Source of the DNA: a virus
Taxonomy: Duplodnaviria > Caudoviricetes
Direction: 5' to 3' (one strand)
Virus record (IMG/VR): IMGVR_UViG_3300018495_000076
Location: 1 to 64,000 of that record
DNA: 64,000 nt
Below, piece after piece: positions 2,827-53,850 of the stretch. The notes under the pieces were generated by a model that saw nothing but the letters and a program-made list of their open reading frames with translations, was not told where the DNA came from and did no database searches. The position numbers and the translations under genes were made by a program. The first letter of the stretch is position 1. Every line of letters begins with the position of its first letter.

Positions 2827-2992
2827 TGTGACCTCCTTCTTTTATCCACCGATTATAAGCTTCAACAAAAATCTCTTTTGAAATAAGCAGTTTATACAAT
2901 GGGGCTTCACTTTCATATTGATATCGATAAACTGGAACATAAATCCCATCATCTGCAACATAAGGCTGATGTTGAATTAACTGTTTTTCCAT
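2813..2992 (-). CDS. Small hypothetical protein (59 aa, MEKQLIQHQPYV...)
   Basis: Manual translation; fills the gap between adjacent genes and has a GAGGAG RBS. Confidence 0.6.
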   Translation of the reverse strand: MEKQLIQHQPYVADDGIYVPVYRYQYESEAPLYKLLISKEIFVEAYNRWIKEGGHNETI

Positions 2993-2995
2993 CTG

Positions 2996-3241
2996 CTACT
3001 TCTCCTCTTCGAGTGTTACATGATAACAACAATTTTGGCAAAACCGTTGTCCACCATCTGTTGTAAAATAATCGTCTACGATCCATTTACCACAGTCATC
3101 ACATCTGTGTGTTGCAACAAAAGAACCACCACACTCTGGACATCCATCAAATTCTTCATATGGTGGTGTATCAAGACCATGTGTTTCTACATAATGTGCT
3201 GGATGTTCAAATAAATGCTGACATTCAAGACATACAAACAT
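2996..3241 (-). CDS. Small zinc-finger protein
   Basis: Four CxxC pairs; GGAGG RBS upstream of ATG 3241. Confidence 0.7.
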   Translation of the reverse strand: MFVCLECQHLFEHPAHYVETHGLDTPPYEEFDGCPECGGSFVATHRCDDCGKWIVDDYFTTDGGQRFCQNCCYHVTLEEEK

Positions 3242-3276
3242 ATAAGTTTTTCCTCCAATCATTCTGCTGTGTTTAT

Positions 3277-3337
3277 ATTATAGCATATATTTTTAAAATG
3301 TCAATAATTACATTGATTTATTTACATTTTGTTAATA
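3277..3337 (-). promoter_or_regulatory. sigma-A promoter with extended -10 and upstream direct-repeat box
   Basis: TTGACA (3299-3304), TGcTATAAT (-10 at 3277-3282), TATTAA-N5-TGTAAA at 3321-3337. Confidence 0.8.
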
Positions 3338-3367: not shown

Positions 3368-4114
3368 TTATTTAATACCTAATAGTGTTTTCCATGTATT
3401 AAGTCCACAGCATCCATCGACCACAAGCCCATTTCTCTGTTGAAAATTTTTTATTGCGGTTTCTGTTTCCTTGCCGGCAAGACCGTCTGGCTTTATTCCA
3501 AGCAATCTTTGTACAAGCATTGTTGAGTTTTTATATTTGTAAAATAATCTTCTTTTAACAATACACTTCGTCGCAACGCTTTCGGTTTCATTTCCCCATT
3601 TGCCATCTAAGCCATATGAGTTAAATTTAAAACCATCTGCTGATGCTGCTCTTTGAAAAGATAATACAAGATTTTCATCTTCGTTGGTTGTAAACTTTTC
3701 TAGTGGAAATAGACTCCCTGGGCAATTAGTTGTCATTAAATCTTTATGACCTTTGACATTCTTTATATTGTATTTCTTTTTCAAGTGCTCCACAAGCTCT
3801 AATCCAGATTCGACTTGTACTTGTGTTGGCATTTCTTTTTCGAAATCTCCTTCAAAACATATTCCAATGCTTGTTGAATTATACCCTTTTGCATGAGATC
3901 CAATAACATCATCTTGTCTACCTCTAAATATTCTGCCCTCTTTGTTTATGAAGTAATGGTATCCACAACCACTCCATTGATTAGACAAATGCCAATTATG
4001 AATATTGTATATACTACAATGACTTGATGCTGCATGGTGTAATACTATCATATCAATCTTGCTTCTTTTAGCTAATGCACCTGCCCAATTTAGGTTTGTT
4101 TCAATAATGTTCAT
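3368..4114 (-). CDS. N-acetylmuramoyl-L-alanine amidase (Amidase_2/T7 lysozyme-like) with C-terminal peptidoglycan-binding domains
   Basis: IVLHHAA, GYHYFI, GSHAKGYNSTSIGICFEG, GHKD..TNCPG; PG_binding_1-like DGLAGKETETAIKNFQQRNGLVVDG. Confidence 0.9.
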   Translation of the reverse strand: MNIIETNLNWAGALAKRSKIDMIVLHHAASSHCSIYNIHNWHLSNQWSGCGYHYFINKEGRIFRGRQDDVIGSHAKGYNSTSIGICFEGDFEKEMPTQVQVESGLELVEHLKKKYNIKNVKGHKDLMTTNCPGSLFPLEKFTTNEDENLVLSFQRAASADGFKFNSYGLDGKWGNETESVATKCIVKRRLFYKYKNSTMLVQRLLGIKPDGLAGKETETAIKNFQQRNGLVVDGCCGLNTWKTLLGIK

Positions 4115-4210
4115 AAGATAAACCACATCCTTGCTATAATCATTTTGTTGTGTTAAATCGTCGGCTATTTAACGCAACTTAATTATATCATAAGATGTGG
4201 TTTAGTTCAA

Positions 4211-4761: not shown

Positions 4762-5580
4762 AAGAGCCGAGTATTCTATTATCCATGGAAGCCCCTCGGC
4801 TGGGCTACTCTGTTATCCTGAGTAAGGTGTGTCCTTATCGGACTAAATGCATCAACCGCCGAAACGATTGAAGGAACCTTTTCTACTGCTAGTAGATAGG
4901 CACAATTTGGTTAACCAAAAGACAGTAACGATATGGACAAAGCCGGCTTCGAACCAACCTCACCAACAGCATCGTCCCTCACAATGCTTAGTGCCCAGTA
5001 TCTACATCTTTTGGTATACGATTTCTATCTAAGCATCGCAACGACACGTTCTCGTCTTCCGCCGCTGGCAGTTCATTAGCTTCCCACTTATCCCTCAATT
5101 CAATCCGTCCCCAGCACGCATGCTGTCGAGGGGGCCAACTACTTTTCGATAGTATTGTTGTTTATAGGCTGTTCATCTCACATCCATTTACCACAGCTGC
5201 TAGACCTCACCTTTATAATAGTATCGACCTATTTCCTGGATGTTTACTCGGGTTAACAGCCCGTCCCAGGCTTCGTGGCACCTATAATTAACTTTCTTGT
5301 TCTGGCGCCCTCAAGAGAAAGGGTTCGTTAATGTGCCATAACGATAGGCTCCCTCACAAAAACTATCTGGAGAATAACACCAAACAATCGCGGCTTGTAG
5401 CTGCCCGTTATGCCCAGCTTCTATATTCCCACTATGCCCTTCGCTACAAATTAAAGCGAGTTTTTTATAAACAAGTACTCACCCTCCCGATTCTCCAAGT
5501 GAGACATCTGCACGATTGACCCATAATATTCAACCCTTTTCGGTGTAACAAACAGATGTGACTATTTTATTGATCGTTCT
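4762..5580 (-). ncRNA. Large structured ncRNA, GOLLD-like candidate (boundaries approximate)
   Basis: ~820 nt between tRNA-Trp and tRNA-Ser, richer in GC than coding DNA, many hairpins, no credible ORF. Size and phage tRNA-array context fit GOLLD RNA. Confidence 0.55.
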
Positions 5581-5601
5581 TTTATCACAATACTTGTTCT
5601 T

Positions 5602-5676
5602 TGGCAGGAGTGGATTGAAATCGAACAATCGTCAACAGTTTTGGAGACTGTTGTGCTACCATTGCACCACACTCCT
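5602..5676 (-). tRNA. tRNA-Trp(CCA)
   Basis: Cloverleaf, ACAGT-CT-CCA-AA-ACTGT, encoded CCA. Confidence 0.92.
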
Positions 5677-5683
5677 ATATAAC

Positions 5684-5805
5684 TAGCCACCTTTATAAGA
5701 CGGGATTCGAACCCGCGTCTTCAGCTTTTCACGGCTGACGCTCTAACCTCTAAGCTACACTGGCAATGATGAAGCCAATAGAATTAAAGTTGCTGTAGGT
5801 GACTA
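5684..5805 (-). ncRNA. Y-RNA(YrlA)-like RNA: terminal helix+ACAGCAA module enclosing a circularly permuted tRNA domain
   Basis: TAGTCACC-TACAGCAA...GGTGGCTA terminal stem. Inside: hairpin-closed acceptor TATTGGC/GCCAGTG, D arm, anticodon arm with 8-nt loop, T arm GCGGG-TTCGAAT-CCCGT. Confidence 0.75.
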
Positions 5806-5881
5806 TGGAGCGAGATACCAGATTCGAACTGGCGCTTACTGCTTGGAAGGCAGTCGTGCTAGCCGCTAACACTAATCCCGC
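5806..5881 (-). tRNA. tRNA-Gly(TCC)
   Basis: Cloverleaf, ACTGC-CT-TCC-AA-GCAGT, U73-CCA. Confidence 0.93.
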
Positions 5882-5935
5882 ATATGTTGCCTTTTTACAG
5901 AAGGCTAACTGTTTCTGGAGGTATAGAATGAAAAG

Positions 5936-6012
5936 TGGTTGGCCCTTAGGGACTTGAACCCTAGACCGCCTCGTTATGAGCGAGATGCTCTAACCAACTG
6001 AGCTAAAGGCCA
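5936..6012 (-). tRNA. tRNA with CAT anticodon (Ile2-like, or elongator Met)
   Basis: Cloverleaf, TCTCG-CT-CAT-AA-CGAGG, A73-CCA. Confidence 0.9.
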
Positions 6013-6048
6013 ATATAGCATGGCTTTCGCCATACTTAGTTGTGGCAT

Positions 6049-6138
6049 TGGTGCCGGAGAACGGGCTCGAACCGTCACGGAGTGTTTAGTTCCACGGGAT
6101 TTTAAGTCCCGGGTGTCTGCCAATTCCACCACTCCGGC
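6049..6138 (-). tRNA. tRNA-Leu(TAA)
   Basis: Type II cloverleaf, CGGGA-CT-TAA-AA-TCCCG. Confidence 0.95.
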
Positions 6139-6142
6139 ATGT

Positions 6143-6217
6143 TGGTCGGGATGACAGGGATCGAACCTGCGTAAACCAGTCCCCAAAGCTGGTGGGCAAC
6201 CACTGCCCCACATCCCG
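6143..6217 (-). tRNA. tRNA-Pro(TGG)
   Basis: C1-G72, A73-CCA, anticodon loop TT-TGG-GG. Confidence 0.92.
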
Positions 6218-6221
6218 ATAT

Positions 6222-6303
6222 TGGTGCTCGTAACAGGACTTGAACCTGCACGAATTAACATATGATCCTAAGTCATACGCGTCTTCCATTCCGCCATACG
6301 AGC
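6222..6303 (-). tRNA. tRNA-Leu(TAG)
   Basis: Cloverleaf, TATGA-CT-TAG-GA-TCATA, A73-CCA. Confidence 0.93.
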
Positions 6304-6376
6304 ATATTACAGTCCTCAATTAGCTACTTCAAGAACTGCAACACTTTGTACAAAACTCGTGAGTGTATACCTCACT

Positions 6377-6421
6377 TGTTGCCAGCGACAGGATTTGAAC
6401 CTGCTCTAAGCCATAACTGGC
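6377..6421 (-). ncRNA. tRNA minihelix-like element (acceptor + T arm only)
   Basis: GCCAGT...GCAGG-TTCAAAT-CCTGT-C-GCTGGC-A-ACA; D and anticodon arms replaced by a ~10-nt linker. Confidence 0.55.
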
Positions 6422-6570
6422 ATATTCGTTGATTGAGCCATAGGATTTTCACCTATGGGAGCAAGCGTTATTAGGCGGCTAGCATACCTAATAACAGGCT
6501 TTACTAATTCTATCCCCACTTACCATTTTCTTGCTTTTTCACATCTTGTATTTTTAAGAGATTTTCTTTT

Positions 6571-6752: not shown

Positions 6753-8312
6753 TTAAACAATGTCCTTAACTGCGTCCTCGATAGCTTGATATCTTTCGAC
6801 ATTAAGCACATCGAGCAAACATTCGTAAGGATCAAGTTTGTTAGACATCACCATTTTGACAATGTTAACACTAAATCCACTAACAAGGGCAACGCCGAGG
6901 CCATTTTCTTTGACAGGAATGGTACCGGTGCGAGAATTTACATTCCAGAACACAAGTCTAGGGAGCTTGTATCCATGTGCTTCGTACTTCTTAGCAATCG
7001 TCTCAAAGAGTGTTGCCGTAGGAGCTTCACGATATGAATACCAGCCACTAGAGCGAGTGGAATTTGTGGTGGCACAAGAGTCAAATTCCATATCAGACAC
7101 GATAAGAATATTAGTAGGAATATCCTCCTGGGCCATATGGTTATTCACTGCCGTCTGAAGAATCAAATCAAATACTGCCTCAATATTAGTGTTTGCACAC
7201 TCATTGTGTCTCAGAGCAATACCCAACTTATCATGAAGAGTCTTGGCGTTGCTAAAGTCAACAAACTGTGGTCTTTCACTAAAGGTGATATACTTATCCT
7301 TAAACTCACCAGAAGCTCTTTCAGCAAAATAAATAGCAAGAGCATTGGCAACATCAAGAGCAGTAACACTAGTCTGACCACCAACATTGACAGTCATGCT
7401 GCCGGAACCGTCTGCGACAACAAGTGTATTGCCATTGCCATTCACTGTGTCGGGCAGAGCTTTCCACATACCCTCAAGTGCGGCGTCATGTAATCTAACG
7501 GACTGACTCCACATACCACCAGACATGTACTTATGCACAATATCATGAGGAAACAAAACAGAAGCATTAATCTTAGCCTCGCCTTTTTCAAGCGCACCAA
7601 GATATGCTCTACGACGCTCCTCATCGTTGCAAAGGAATGCATTGTTGTAAATAAGATTTGCACGAGAAGGAACGGCCTCATAATTGATTCTACCCCATTC
7701 TCTTGCAGACATCTTACATTCAACCACGTCAATATACTTACGGAGTTTAGAGAGCATCTTACGATAGTTCTTTGATGTCATGCCAAGCCCATTGCGAATG
7801 ATAGTTGCATATCTCTTTGTTTCCTTGGAAGACGCATTCTCTGAAGGAAGCCACTTTCCAATAAGAGAGATAGATTTATTGTTCTCCATGTTAATTCTGT
7901 CTTCACCAAGCTGTTCTGCGACACCAGCAATGATGTTCTGCTTCAAATCTGTATCAAGAAGACACCACATATCGTCGTATCTACCATATTCAGATGTAAA
8001 CTTCAGCACTGCCTTGATTACCTCAGGCTTATTCTGAGCAAGGTGCTTAAGCACGATTCTAAACAGTCTTCTTTCGCCAAGACCCTCACGGCAGTCTCTA
8101 GTGTAAAAGAGCCACTTGATTGCCACAATAGGATCTTCCCAATAAGCGTCCATAAACTTATCGATAATCGTCTGTTCCAAAGCGCCTCTGAGAGAAGCAA
8201 CGGAGAAGTTAAGATCAAGCAGTTTCTTGCCTGTGCTTTTAAATCCAACAGCACCATTTTCGGTCAACTGCTTTTCGTTGTTAAGTTCATTTTTCATTGC
8301 ATTCATAAACAT
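6753..8312 (-). CDS. DUF2828-family protein (helical domain + C-terminal vWA; Ro60/TROVE-like architecture)
   Basis: TENGA, LFYTRDCREGLGERRLF, YGRYDD, KWLPSEN, INYEAVPSRA, MIDAS motif DGSGSM, NTNIEAVFDLIL, SDMEFD, FWNV, LVSGFS; GGAGG RBS before ATG 8312. Confidence 0.88.
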   Translation of the reverse strand: MFMNAMKNELNNEKQLTENGAVGFKSTGKKLLDLNFSVASLRGALEQTIIDKFMDAYWEDPIVAIKWLFYTRDCREGLGERRLFRIVLKHLAQNKPEVIKAVLKFTSEYGRYDDMWCLLDTDLKQNIIAGVAEQLGEDRINMENNKSISLIGKWLPSENASSKETKRYATIIRNGLGMTSKNYRKMLSKLRKYIDVVECKMSAREWGRINYEAVPSRANLIYNNAFLCNDEERRRAYLGALEKGEAKINASVLFPHDIVHKYMSGGMWSQSVRLHDAALEGMWKALPDTVNGNGNTLVVADGSGSMTVNVGGQTSVTALDVANALAIYFAERASGEFKDKYITFSERPQFVDFSNAKTLHDKLGIALRHNECANTNIEAVFDLILQTAVNNHMAQEDIPTNILIVSDMEFDSCATTNSTRSSGWYSYREAPTATLFETIAKKYEAHGYKLPRLVFWNVNSRTGTIPVKENGLGVALVSGFSVNIVKMVMSNKLDPYECLLDVLNVERYQAIEDAVKDIV

Positions 8313-9090: not shown

Positions 9091-9252
9091 ATTGTACCAT
9101 ACTTTATTTGATTTGTCAATAGTTCTTTCAATCTGTTTACAAATCGTTTACATTTGTTTATATTTTGGATTGATTTCCTATTGTGTTATCATTATAGCAC
9201 AATCATTTTGTTTTGTCAAGTACTATTTGTAAGCGTTAACATTTTGTTTACA
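9091..9252 (-). promoter_or_regulatory. Tandem sigma-A promoters driving the tRNA/ncRNA array, each with an upstream direct-repeat box
   Basis: TTGACA-17-TACAAT (9091-9119) and TTGACA-17-TATAAT (9191-9219), both with extended -10. Boxes at 9136-9152 and 9236-9252. Confidence 0.85.
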
Positions 9253-53782: not shown

Positions 53783-53850
53783 CGTGACTTCGGATGCATA
53801 AGCACCCAAACGCACTTGGCTTAACACGGTTTAGCCTCCCCAAGTGGAGG
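53783..53850 (-). ncRNA. Pistol self-cleaving ribozyme
   Basis: P1 CCTCC/GGAGG with loop ACTTGG; CTAAA; P2 CGTG/CACG; TTAAG; pseudoknot strand CCAAGT; GCGT; P3 TTGGGTGC/GCATCCGA; A-GU cleavage site. Confidence 0.9.

Follow-up and report, generated by a model that had tools for sequence, protein, structure and literature searches.

A handle-closed, circularly permuted tRNA-like RNA in a tailed phage and its linkage to a Ro60-like gene

What is an RNA that has the D, anticodon and T arms of a tRNA, together with an acceptor stem closed off by a loop, doing in the tRNA array of a phage? The question is raised by a 122-nt element at positions 5684..5805, minus strand, of the window, by which we mean the first 64 kb of IMG/VR record IMGVR_UViG_3300018495_000076 (Caudoviricetes), a phage record of 174,761 bp that has direct terminal repeats. 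The element is embedded in an array of tRNA genes (5602..6303, minus strand, called with ARAGORN and Rfam) that reads Leu, Pro, Leu, Met, Gly, element, Trp, so that tRNA-Gly flanks it on the 5' side and tRNA-Trp on the 3' side. Its first base, 5805, directly abuts the encoded CCA of tRNA-Gly (5808-5806), as an earlier interpretation made from the letters alone (hereafter the sequence-only reading) had claimed, and 6 nt separate it from tRNA-Trp, or 7 nt when counted from the closing helix at 5684. Here we describe the fold of the element, the large family of small RNAs to which it belongs and the gene beside which that family clusters, and we weigh the proposal that these RNAs are phage analogs of Y RNAs.

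Layout and fold of the permuted tRNA-like element

Read 5' to 3' on the minus strand, the element consists of a closing strand, a U, ACAGCAA, a linker, the acceptor hairpin, UA, the D arm, a G, the anticodon arm, AGAC, the T arm, a C, a second linker and the second closing strand; as a whole it scores 143.7 bits on the covariance model R1. The closing helix P1 is formed by UAGUCACC (5798..5805) and GGUGGCUA (5691-5684), with eight of eight pairs made here and 100% of cells paired in nine sequences of the same layout (type A, described below), and a conserved G at 5683 follows directly. Behind the 5' strand stand the spacer base U 5797, the unpaired ACAGCAA (5790..5796), which is invariant in the nine type-A sequences, and an A/U-rich linker, CUUUAAUUC (5781..5789), which varies among them in length and sequence. 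The acceptor stem is encoded in reverse order, its 3' strand UAUUGGC (5774..5780, tRNA positions 66'/67-72) preceding its 5' strand GCCAGUG (5758..5764, positions 1-7), and the 9-nt loop between them, UUCAUCAUU (5765..5773), occupies the place of the discriminator base, the CCA and an intergenic spacer. Next come U8 and A9 with the D arm GCUU-AGAGGUUA-GAGC (5740..5757, the arm itself at 5755-5740), the anticodon arm UCAGC-CGUGAAAA-GCUGA with an 8-nt loop (5721..5738), and the variable loop AGAC, the T arm GCGGG-UUCGAAU-CCCGU (5716-5700) and C66 at 5699 (together 5699..5720). The linker UUAUAAA then leads into the 3' strand of the closing helix (together 5684..5698). All of the parts named in the sequence-only reading between 5805 and 5684 were thus found in the sequence.

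The Rfam tRNA model (RF00005), to whose alignment the D and T arms conform, matches 5758..5699 at 45.9 bits (E 1.4e-6 for the whole window) over model positions 7-64 only, and the match is therefore that of a tRNA body without the terminal acceptor stem. The D, anticodon and T arms are of canonical size and covary, the anticodon loop of the window having 8 nt; the acceptor stem of a tRNA is formed by the RNA ends and leaves a free 3' end, which is not the case here, as the stem is capped by the 9-nt loop. ARAGORN called neither a tRNA nor a tmRNA at the element, and the Rfam tmRNA model gave nothing within 5500-6000 at E up to 10. The minimum free energy (MFE) of the element is -39.1 kcal/mol (z = -2.87), and none of 200 shuffled sequences folded as well. 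The MFE structure and the centroid both show the closing helix, the acceptor hairpin with its cap and the T arm; the MFE structure misdraws the D and anticodon arms.

Homologs were collected from the flanks of genes for homologs of the neighboring protein and with two pattern scans in which nothing but the closing helix and ACAGCAA was prescribed. Nine sequences share the layout, namely that of the window and those of the loci numbered L002, L009, L028 (the same record as L138), L223, L233, L234, L222 and L225; eight of the nine are distinct in their helices. L222 and L225 are near-identical and were counted as one event. A relative resembling L002 was also present in one of four DNA sequencing runs that were checked. 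The near-invariance of the closing helix in the nine follows from the search pattern, which demanded it. Over the five helices, 98.8-99.2% of cells are paired (98.8% of 259 cells in A5, the nine-sequence alignment fitted to the model), and 15-16 of the 29 pairs carry compensatory changes on both sides. None of 500 shuffles reached any of the five measures, and moving the 3' partners by 1-3 columns lowered pairing to 33-48%. RNAalifold, run on the nine-sequence alignment with the structure withheld, returned the same five helices. The most variable of them is the capped acceptor hairpin, in which six of seven pairs are compensatory (six of six among the inner pairs) and which occurs as UAUUGGC/GCCAGUG, UGUCUUC/GAAGAUG, UGUAGCA/UGCUAUG, UGUCACA/UGUGAUG, UGUCUCU/AGAGAUG, UUGAGG/CCUCAG and CUUCCU/AGGGAG; double changes were likewise found in four of the five pairs of the anticodon stem.

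The covariation extends to the contacts that shape a tRNA. Position 7 (G 5758) pairs with the base right after the T stem (C 5699) in all nine sequences (GC in seven, CG in two), a competing U.G pair within the acceptor hairpin being possible in seven, and the T stem therefore stacks on the acceptor helix with the chain broken between positions 66 and 67. A permuted opening near the acceptor and the T arm had been proposed from the window alone, and that much stands, but the site is 66/67 and not 65/66. The Levitt pair is consistent throughout, as G15:C48 in four sequences and A15:U48 in five; U8, A9, A14 and the D-loop GG are unchanged in all nine; and every T loop reads UUCRANU, with UUC and A58 kept. 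The anticodon loop is the 8-nt NGUGAAAN in five of the nine, the window included, and has 7 nt in the other four. Together, the covarying helices, the switch of the Levitt pair and the invariant tertiary nucleotides indicate an RNA selected to fold as an L-shaped tRNA body, and we regard it as very likely that the element is such a selected, permuted tRNA-like RNA. The description of the locus as a structured tRNA mimic, circularly permuted and with its acceptor closed by a loop, is accordingly backed by covariation and by the Levitt pair in nine sequences; a tRNA fold re-threaded at 66/67 still keeps its tertiary covariation.

A derivation from tRNA-Phe had also been suggested and did not hold up. 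It was based on the GAA of the loop only, other members carry other loops, and Phe is not among the 14 canonical tRNAs of the phage genome. When the body was compared with the phage's own tRNAs, the best match was tRNA-Asp, and that match was weak (25 of 60).

The element does not appear to be a tRNA, and it is neither a permuted tRNA gene of the known type nor a tmRNA. Permuted tRNA genes occur in the red alga Cyanidioschyzon merolae, in some other algae and in archaea, and their paired termini form a bulge-helix-bulge, at which a splicing endonuclease cuts and a circular intermediate arises. As in the element, the 3' acceptor strand is encoded before the 5' strand with a short loop between them, and the ends of the precursor RNA pair. 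The element, however, permutes 6 nt only, and its termini form a continuous helix of 8-9 bp together with ACAGCAA instead of a bulge-helix-bulge. The Pfam family tRNA_int_endo was absent from the 174.8-kb phage genome in a search that was positive in four control archaea, and no RtcB was found in the phage genome. Permuted ssrA genes of alpha-proteobacteria and cyanobacteria give a two-piece tmRNA from which the capping segment is excised, leaving a chargeable molecule; a tmRNA combines a tRNA-Ala-like acceptor with a tag reading frame. The element differs from it in lacking a tag reading frame and any tmRNA match with ARAGORN or Rfam.

A handle shared by hundreds of small RNAs

The "CAGCAA helix" of the sequence-only reading does close the element, but it is not private to it. 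It is a handle common to hundreds of neighboring small RNAs, and the element therefore belongs to a large family instead of standing alone. The handle consists of an 8-bp terminal helix, one base, the unpaired heptamer ACAGCAA on the 5' strand and a G after the 3' strand, which in the element are UAGUCACC / GGUGGCUA, U, ACAGCAA and G 5683. Hundreds of units of 50-150 nt share this arrangement and differ in their contents. The consensus of 126 units, collected with ACAGCAA as the anchor, is WAGRYRCN-N-ACAGCAA, an A/U-rich linker ... NGYRYCUW-G. Both ends are sharply conserved, units opening with W-A-G and finishing with C-U-W-G, and the G after the stem is present in 110 of the 126. Rfam 15 holds no family for these units and, at E up to 10, gave no match to the element besides a sub-threshold YrlA match and the partial tRNA match.

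For genome scans the handle was written as a 7-mer, 0-2 bases, ACAGCRA and the complement of the 7-mer within ~250 nt. A first scan of 97 loci around DUF2828 homologs gave 318 hits on the gene strand vs 22 on the opposite strand, and a tighter scan of 92 viral loci gave 272 units vs 18. In the tighter scan, the 500 nt upstream of the gene contained 95 units (88 loci) and the 500 nt downstream contained 53; more than 2 kb away, there were 0-9 units per 500-nt bin. By chance the pattern arises ~7.5 times per 175 kb, both strands included, in shuffled genome sequence. An independent set of 80 bacterial or archaeal assembly loci, mostly contigs of metagenome-assembled genomes (MAGs), gave 149 units vs 16, with at least one unit in 59 of the 80. 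When closure was not demanded beforehand, 123 of 417 instances of the motif were closed by their own stem vs a mean of 33 (maximum 43) with swapped 7-mers, and in a second set 97 of 256 were closed vs 24, from which it follows that the handle helix covaries across the family. No conserved complementary partner of the heptamer ACAGCAA was found across the family. A second A-U helix after ACAGCAA, with the motif as a bulge, was considered and rejected, its pairing (0.34-0.50, in four registers) equaling that of swapped controls (0.37-0.45).

Handle units lie beside the gene, on its strand, at all eight isolate-phage loci examined. Three units were found upstream of the gene in Listeria phage List-36, three in the tRNA cluster behind the gene in each of Escherichia phages CL1 and Bas63, three downstream in Mycobacterium phage Winky, four upstream in Enterococcus phage EfV12-phi1, three downstream in Staphylococcus phage S-CoN_Ph5, two upstream in Campylobacter phage F374 and four upstream in Bacillus phage Izhevsk. 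In S-CoN_Ph5 the units stand directly behind the gene, where tiny hypothetical open reading frames (ORFs) are annotated in their place (L321:4010-4099 and neighbors), and the nearest annotated tRNA is 2.1 kb off. Conversely, the RNA pattern by itself led to 12 loci of 5 kb or more; seven of them contain a DUF2828 gene in the fetched stretch, and one more has it elsewhere on the record. Five of the nine permuted members lie 0.45-2.3 kb downstream of the DUF2828 gene, on its strand. Units occur in tandem arrays of 2-8, in or beside tRNA arrays, and are usually 0-12 nt from a neighboring tRNA or unit.

A number of annotations touch these loci. The three handle RNAs inside the tRNA cluster of Felixounaviruses (L218:5714-5778, ~6340-6420 and 6388-6510, with equivalents in the Bas63 locus L238 at ~3250-3335 and, for the other two, within 3880-4130) have the helix AGACCNNN / NNNGGUCU followed by GG and carry the motif as ACAGCAA, GCAGCAA and UUCAGCAA; they are unannotated in both records. 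Features called "tRNA-Pseudo" or "tRNA-OTHER" are present in the adjacent tRNA arrays of EfV12-phi1 and Izhevsk (L320:444-510; L323:1-26 and 1094-1166) and do not coincide with the scanned units. Just behind a DUF2828 gene, ARAGORN called two "tRNA-???" with odd-length anticodon loops (cgta and at) at L004:2716-2787 and 2945-3018; as model R1 scores 51.4 bits at L004:2698-2794, at least one of the pair is a handle-closed tRNA-like RNA. In List-36, a match to the ROOL RNA (L219:2459-3010, 91.5 bits vs a gathering score of 99.1) lies ~1 kb upstream of the DUF2828 gene and the three units.

What the handle carries varies widely. Most units are 50-70 nt long, and 75 of 184 short inserts form a tRNA-type anticodon stem-loop vs a mean of 17 (maximum 26) in shuffled sequences, the commonest anticodon being UUU with 20 cases. 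Some longer units contain a T arm alone. Others contain a T arm, a capped acceptor and a D arm in the order of YrlA (L010:2884-3001, L216:2822-2938, L320:2086-2201 and L237:4025-4144) or a tRNA body in normal order whose leader and trailer form the handle (L137 and L230:8665-8774), and the permuted body of the element is a further type. At L099 the handle is turned inside out: a tRNA that is normal in other respects has a capped hairpin and then the motif in its anticodon region.

The phage studied here has at least eight RNAs with the common handle. Three tandem handle-closed units of 55, 145 and 59 nt (8643-8589, 8576-8432 and 8411-8353, minus strand) lie directly upstream of the DUF2828 gene; the third contains AUAGA-CUUUUAA-UCUAU, a mimic of a tRNA-Lys(UUU)-type anticodon arm. 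Upstream of these are three tRNA-like genes (9042-8915, 8906-8789 and 8780-8652, minus strand) with normal ends, D arms and T arms and an insert of 44-56 nt in the anticodon arm. Each insert is a hairpin followed by ACAGCAA, ACUGCAA or GCAGCAA, a degenerate inside-out handle, and the three genes look like the inside-out form of handle RNAs. The gene at 8906-8789 scores 49.1 bits on the Rfam tRNA model with its 56-nt insert, and ARAGORN calls none of the three. The third still has the anticodon stem-loop of a Tyr (GUA) tRNA, along with a long variable arm; a canonical tRNA-Tyr is encoded at genome positions 70012-70096. In that second tRNA cluster, a handle-closed tRNA-like RNA on the plus strand (genome 70100-70200) stands between tRNA-Tyr and tRNA-Thr. 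It has a D arm, an anticodon arm with the loop CUCGAAA and a T arm, and its acceptor stem is absent.

The DUF2828/DUF7788 neighbor and the comparison with Y RNAs

The gene beside which the handle units cluster is represented in the window by a 519-aa reading frame (6753..8312, minus strand) with matches to Pfam DUF2828 (E 9e-35) and DUF7788, a von Willebrand factor A (vWA) domain (E 4e-45). It starts at 8312 behind a GGAGG, its length agrees with that of the stored protein P0001, and its product belongs to phrog_850, "RNA-binding protein". The last upstream handle unit stops 40 nt before its ATG, and the element lies 948 nt downstream of it on the same strand. With tblastn, DUF2828/DUF7788 homologs were found in 696 phage records, including Felixounavirus and phages of Listeria, Enterococcus, Staphylococcus, Campylobacter, Bacillus, Vibrio and Mycobacterium. 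The nearest relative among assembly proteins (76% identity) is encoded at L239, a 165,582-bp contig that has the same three handle units upstream of the gene and is binned with a Paludibacteraceae MAG, a binning that may be a hint of the host or an artefact.

Weaker lines of evidence agree in suggesting that this protein is Ro60-like and probably a distant relative of Ro60. The mycobacteriophage homologs, which are DUF2828 plus DUF7788 in Pfam, are annotated as "Ro-like RNA binding protein". Pfam vWA_Ro60 matches 5 of 12 relatives (best E 9.7e-5) and VWA_2 matches 9 of 12. In the ESM-Atlas, queried with the 85%-identical stored homolog P0006 in place of the window protein, the nearest named clusters, with DUF2828/DUF7788 left out, were TROVE in 30 of 30 cases (top score 0.94, 180 shared features). 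No NCBIfam family matches the 519-aa protein. Protein gp130 of phage Bas63 (bas63_0130) belongs to the DUF2828 family as a 35% identical homolog. A preprint on PhageMaP credits gp130 with "high structural similarity to Ro60" and with countering the Ppl defense system, and places its gene just upstream of tRNA genes, some of which its authors guess to be Y RNAs (PMC11482910).

According to Chen et al. (2014), the 5' and 3' ends of a Y RNA pair into a stem whose conserved 5'-strand motif binds Ro60, and the rest is a variable module that often resembles a tRNA; in YrlA the module is a tRNA mimic and the stem motif is GNCGAAN0-1G, and Y RNA genes lie within 4 kb of the Ro60 gene on the same strand (PMC4201824). 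The element resembles YrlA (RF02553) in being a small RNA that adjoins a putative Ro60-type gene on the same strand, in having a terminal 5'-3' helix with a conserved 5'-strand motif, and in containing a tRNA-like domain whose acceptor is closed by a loop and which has D and T arms as well as Levitt covariation, the compensatory G15:C48 / A15:U48 exchange of YrlA being found here as well. In these respects, and in the position of the Ro60-like DUF2828/DUF7788 gene on the same strand, the Y-RNA-like design put forward in the sequence-only reading is supported. The two RNAs nevertheless differ. The element keeps its anticodon arm and runs acceptor hairpin, D, anticodon, T, with the chain opened at 66/67, whereas YrlA opens at the anticodon stem; its motif is ACAGCAA, and its only CGAA is in the T loop; and the partner of YrlA is a Ro60 of Pfam TROVE, whereas the neighbor of the element is DUF2828/DUF7788. 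A search with the YrlA covariance model, proposed earlier as a check, gave the element 23.3 bits (E 0.013) vs a threshold of 69, and the alignment was spurious, joining the T arm of the element to the D arm of the next tRNA. The element appears to work like a Y RNA while standing apart from YrlA in score, motif and arm order.

Members of the handle family that do have the YrlA order score 45.2 and 34.3 bits on RF02553, below 69. Because they belong to the same family, the claim that the mimic was independently derived holds for the topology of the permuted subfamily and not necessarily for the whole system. Neither the element nor the units upstream of the gene matched Rfam Y_RNA or a related family at E up to 10. 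A phage precedent is given in PMC12135203, where Yrl1 and Yrl2 of Thermus phage phiLo are encoded by the phage with an adjacent Ro60 gene. The Y RNAs of metazoans and Deinococcus (Yrn1) and those of phiLo resemble the handle family in combining a protein-binding stem with a variable effector module and in occurring as several different RNAs per genome. They differ in their bulged helix, their CGAA-type motif and their canonical TROVE Ro60 (PMC12135203), and the handle family differs from them in its tandem arrays of 2-8 and its frequent anticodon-arm mimics. We found no description of handle RNAs or their arrays in the papers searched, although the phage YrlA candidates in the supplement of PMC4201824 may overlap the members with the YrlA order.

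The wider surroundings are as follows. Two tandem sigma-70-type promoters (9219..9191 and 9119..9091, minus strand), with 12/12 and 11/12 consensus matches and an extended -10 TG each, head the RNA array, the DUF2828 gene and the tRNA cluster; after them come, on the minus strand, the insert-bearing tRNA-like genes, the small units, the 519-aa gene and the tRNA array. Downstream of the tRNA array are an endolysin and an ATP-dependent RNA ligase (685-2190), and a DnaE-type polymerase is encoded upstream of the region. A Pistol self-cleaving ribozyme match (53783-53850, minus strand, 38.5 bits vs a gathering score of 34.5) is remote from the element. A DNA-level search for close relatives among isolate phages matched the neighboring tRNAs only. 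Of the words sampled from the locus, half or more occur in each of eight sequencing runs, which are labeled as feces or bovine metagenomes; six of the eight may be the source sample.

A proposed Y RNA analog and its alternatives

With moderate confidence, we propose that the element is an analog of a Y RNA in which the DUF2828 protein is anchored by the handle, with the tRNA mimic in the role of bait or tether. The handle would be the binding site of the neighboring DUF2828/vWA protein, which would make the handle RNAs functional analogs of Y RNAs. The element would then be a subunit of a ribonucleoprotein (RNP) and display a complete, L-shaped but capped tRNA mimic, the chain entering and leaving between 66 and 67. 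It would be transcribed together with the tRNA array and freed by the processing of its tRNA neighbors, the 5' end coming from 3' maturation of tRNA-Gly and the 3' end from an RNase P cut at tRNA-Trp with ~6 nt of trimming. The mimic had been called non-chargeable, which holds for the primary transcript. Once in the particle, the body that mimics a tRNA would bait or tether a factor that recognizes tRNA, candidates being a host tRNA-directed defense nuclease and an enzyme of RNA repair or decay. The tethering of Ro60 to PNPase by Y RNAs offers a parallel.

Several observations weigh against this proposal. No sequence is common to the handle and the motifs known to bind Ro60. Neither sequence nor profile searches of the PDB (E up to 1 and up to 10) reached Ro60, and Pfam TROVE had no match in the phage genome at E up to 10, so that the likeness to Ro60 rests on weak vWA matches, language-model neighbors and one statement in a preprint. 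Linkage to the gene would also fit a role without contact to the protein. Moreover, the permuted members L222 and L233 have no DUF2828 gene in the few kb that were fetched, and one unit of the phage (genome 70100-70200) is ~62 kb from the gene. Across the permuted subfamily the anticodon loop varies and so does not point to any single bait specificity. Finally, none of the 22 listed runs is an RNA run that contains the locus.

The linkage might instead reflect a role in RNA processing, in which the handle serves the processing, stability or insulation of phage tRNA operons without touching the DUF2828 protein, for example as a recognition site for an RNase of the host or the phage or as a clamp that protects spacer RNA, and the gene is linked to it as part of a shared module for tRNA and RNA repair. 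The units do lie within tRNA arrays or beside them, mostly 0-12 nt from a neighbor, even the unit 62 kb from the gene lies between two tRNAs, and the sharply conserved ends are what a cleavage signal would have (G after the stem in 110 of 126). We nonetheless consider this unlikely, as unit density peaks within 500 nt on both sides of the gene even where no tRNA is adjacent (S-CoN_Ph5), the pairing of handle and gene recurs across five very different host groups, which shared host RNases hardly explain, and a covarying helix flanked by 7 invariant unpaired nt is what one typically sees at a protein site. The element might also be a split, chargeable tRNA after all, if RNase P were to cut in the capping loop, 5' of G 5764, CCA were added to the upstream piece after trimming and the two pieces, kept joined by pairing in the acceptor stem and the closing helix, were aminoacylated, perhaps for unusual decoding through the 8-nt loop. 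Its 7-bp acceptor stem stacked on the T arm via 7:66, the retention of all tRNA tertiary nucleotides and a capping loop that begins with N-CCA in two of nine sequences (GCCA in L223, ACCA in L233) and with N-UCA in two more (the window and L002) would suit such a route, for which the two-piece tmRNA is a bacterial precedent. A YrlA of Mycobacterium smegmatis with a 7-bp acceptor stem is another, being cut by RNase P in vitro and found cleaved and CCA-tailed in vivo (PMC4201824). A decoding role is at odds, however, with anticodon loops that differ among members (NGUGAAAN in five; CGGAUAA, AGUGUAU and AUUUGAA in others), several of them without U33 in register. In addition, the same handle carries bare anticodon arms, T arms and A/U-rich hairpins that are incapable of being tRNAs, the helix and two linkers would protrude at 66/67 from the acceptor/T-arm stack, and the phage has neither a splicing endonuclease nor RtcB. 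We therefore hold this route to be improbable.

A mainly regulatory action of the handle RNAs on the DUF2828 gene, in cis or in trans, whether as leader sites or as titrating decoys with the tRNA-like inserts as passengers acquired from nearby tRNA arrays, would account for the peak in unit density in the 500 nt upstream of the start codon (95 units, 88 loci), for the last unit of the window ending 40 nt ahead of the ATG and for the high heterogeneity of the inserts. Passenger sequence, however, would not be expected to show the structural selection seen in the permuted body and its tertiary pair, the element lies downstream of the gene within the tRNA array, and 53 units lie within 500 nt downstream, all of which leaves us with little inclination to accept this explanation either. 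Least credible of all is a functionless pseudogene left by a decaying tandem tRNA duplication. An acceptor 3' strand, an N-CCA-like loop and a tRNA are indeed the layout of an end-trimmed tandem repeat, and ARAGORN makes no call at the element. Against decay stand conservation among phages with DUF2828 proteins 57-75% identical, 15-16 compensatory pairs with almost no broken ones, a divergence of the stems that excludes recent copies, and retention of the handle.

The same layout bears on where the element may have come from. The simplest origin, judging from its arrangement, would be a tandem tRNA duplicate that was trimmed at both ends and captured by the handle. The capping loop, at the place of the discriminator, the CCA and a 5-nt spacer, reads GCCAUUUUU in L223 and ACCAUUUUU in L233.

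Returning to the Y RNA analogy, three observations would point to tRNA-directed conflict or repair: cargoes that mimic anticodon arms, an RNA ligase close by, and the Ppl phenotype. We suggest tentatively, as a possibility that we would not call probable, that many tailed phages carry a Ro60-like RNP with one universal handle and a changeable library of tRNA parts for RNA-based counter-defense. If so, the particle would bait, sequester or redirect immune nucleases that target tRNA, or recruit repair enzymes to cut tRNAs; the neutralization of Ppl by the Bas63 homolog would be explained; and the capped, permuted member would be a tRNA look-alike that is neither charged nor consumed. For annotation, the handle units are a class that is currently missed, some of them being called tiny hypothetical ORFs. 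To our knowledge, what the tRNA-like modules of Y RNAs contact is an old puzzle. The handle RNAs would constitute a large, phage-borne sister system to Y RNA/Ro60, with another protein family, a simple handle and explicit tRNA-derived cargoes in three topologies. Carriers include Felixounavirus Bas63, which grows on E. coli K-12, and phages of Listeria, Staphylococcus, Enterococcus, Bacillus, Campylobacter and Mycobacterium. Since the system resides in such tractable phages, and one of its proteins has a counter-defense phenotype according to PMC11482910, binding of the handle and the role of the mimic would be directly testable.

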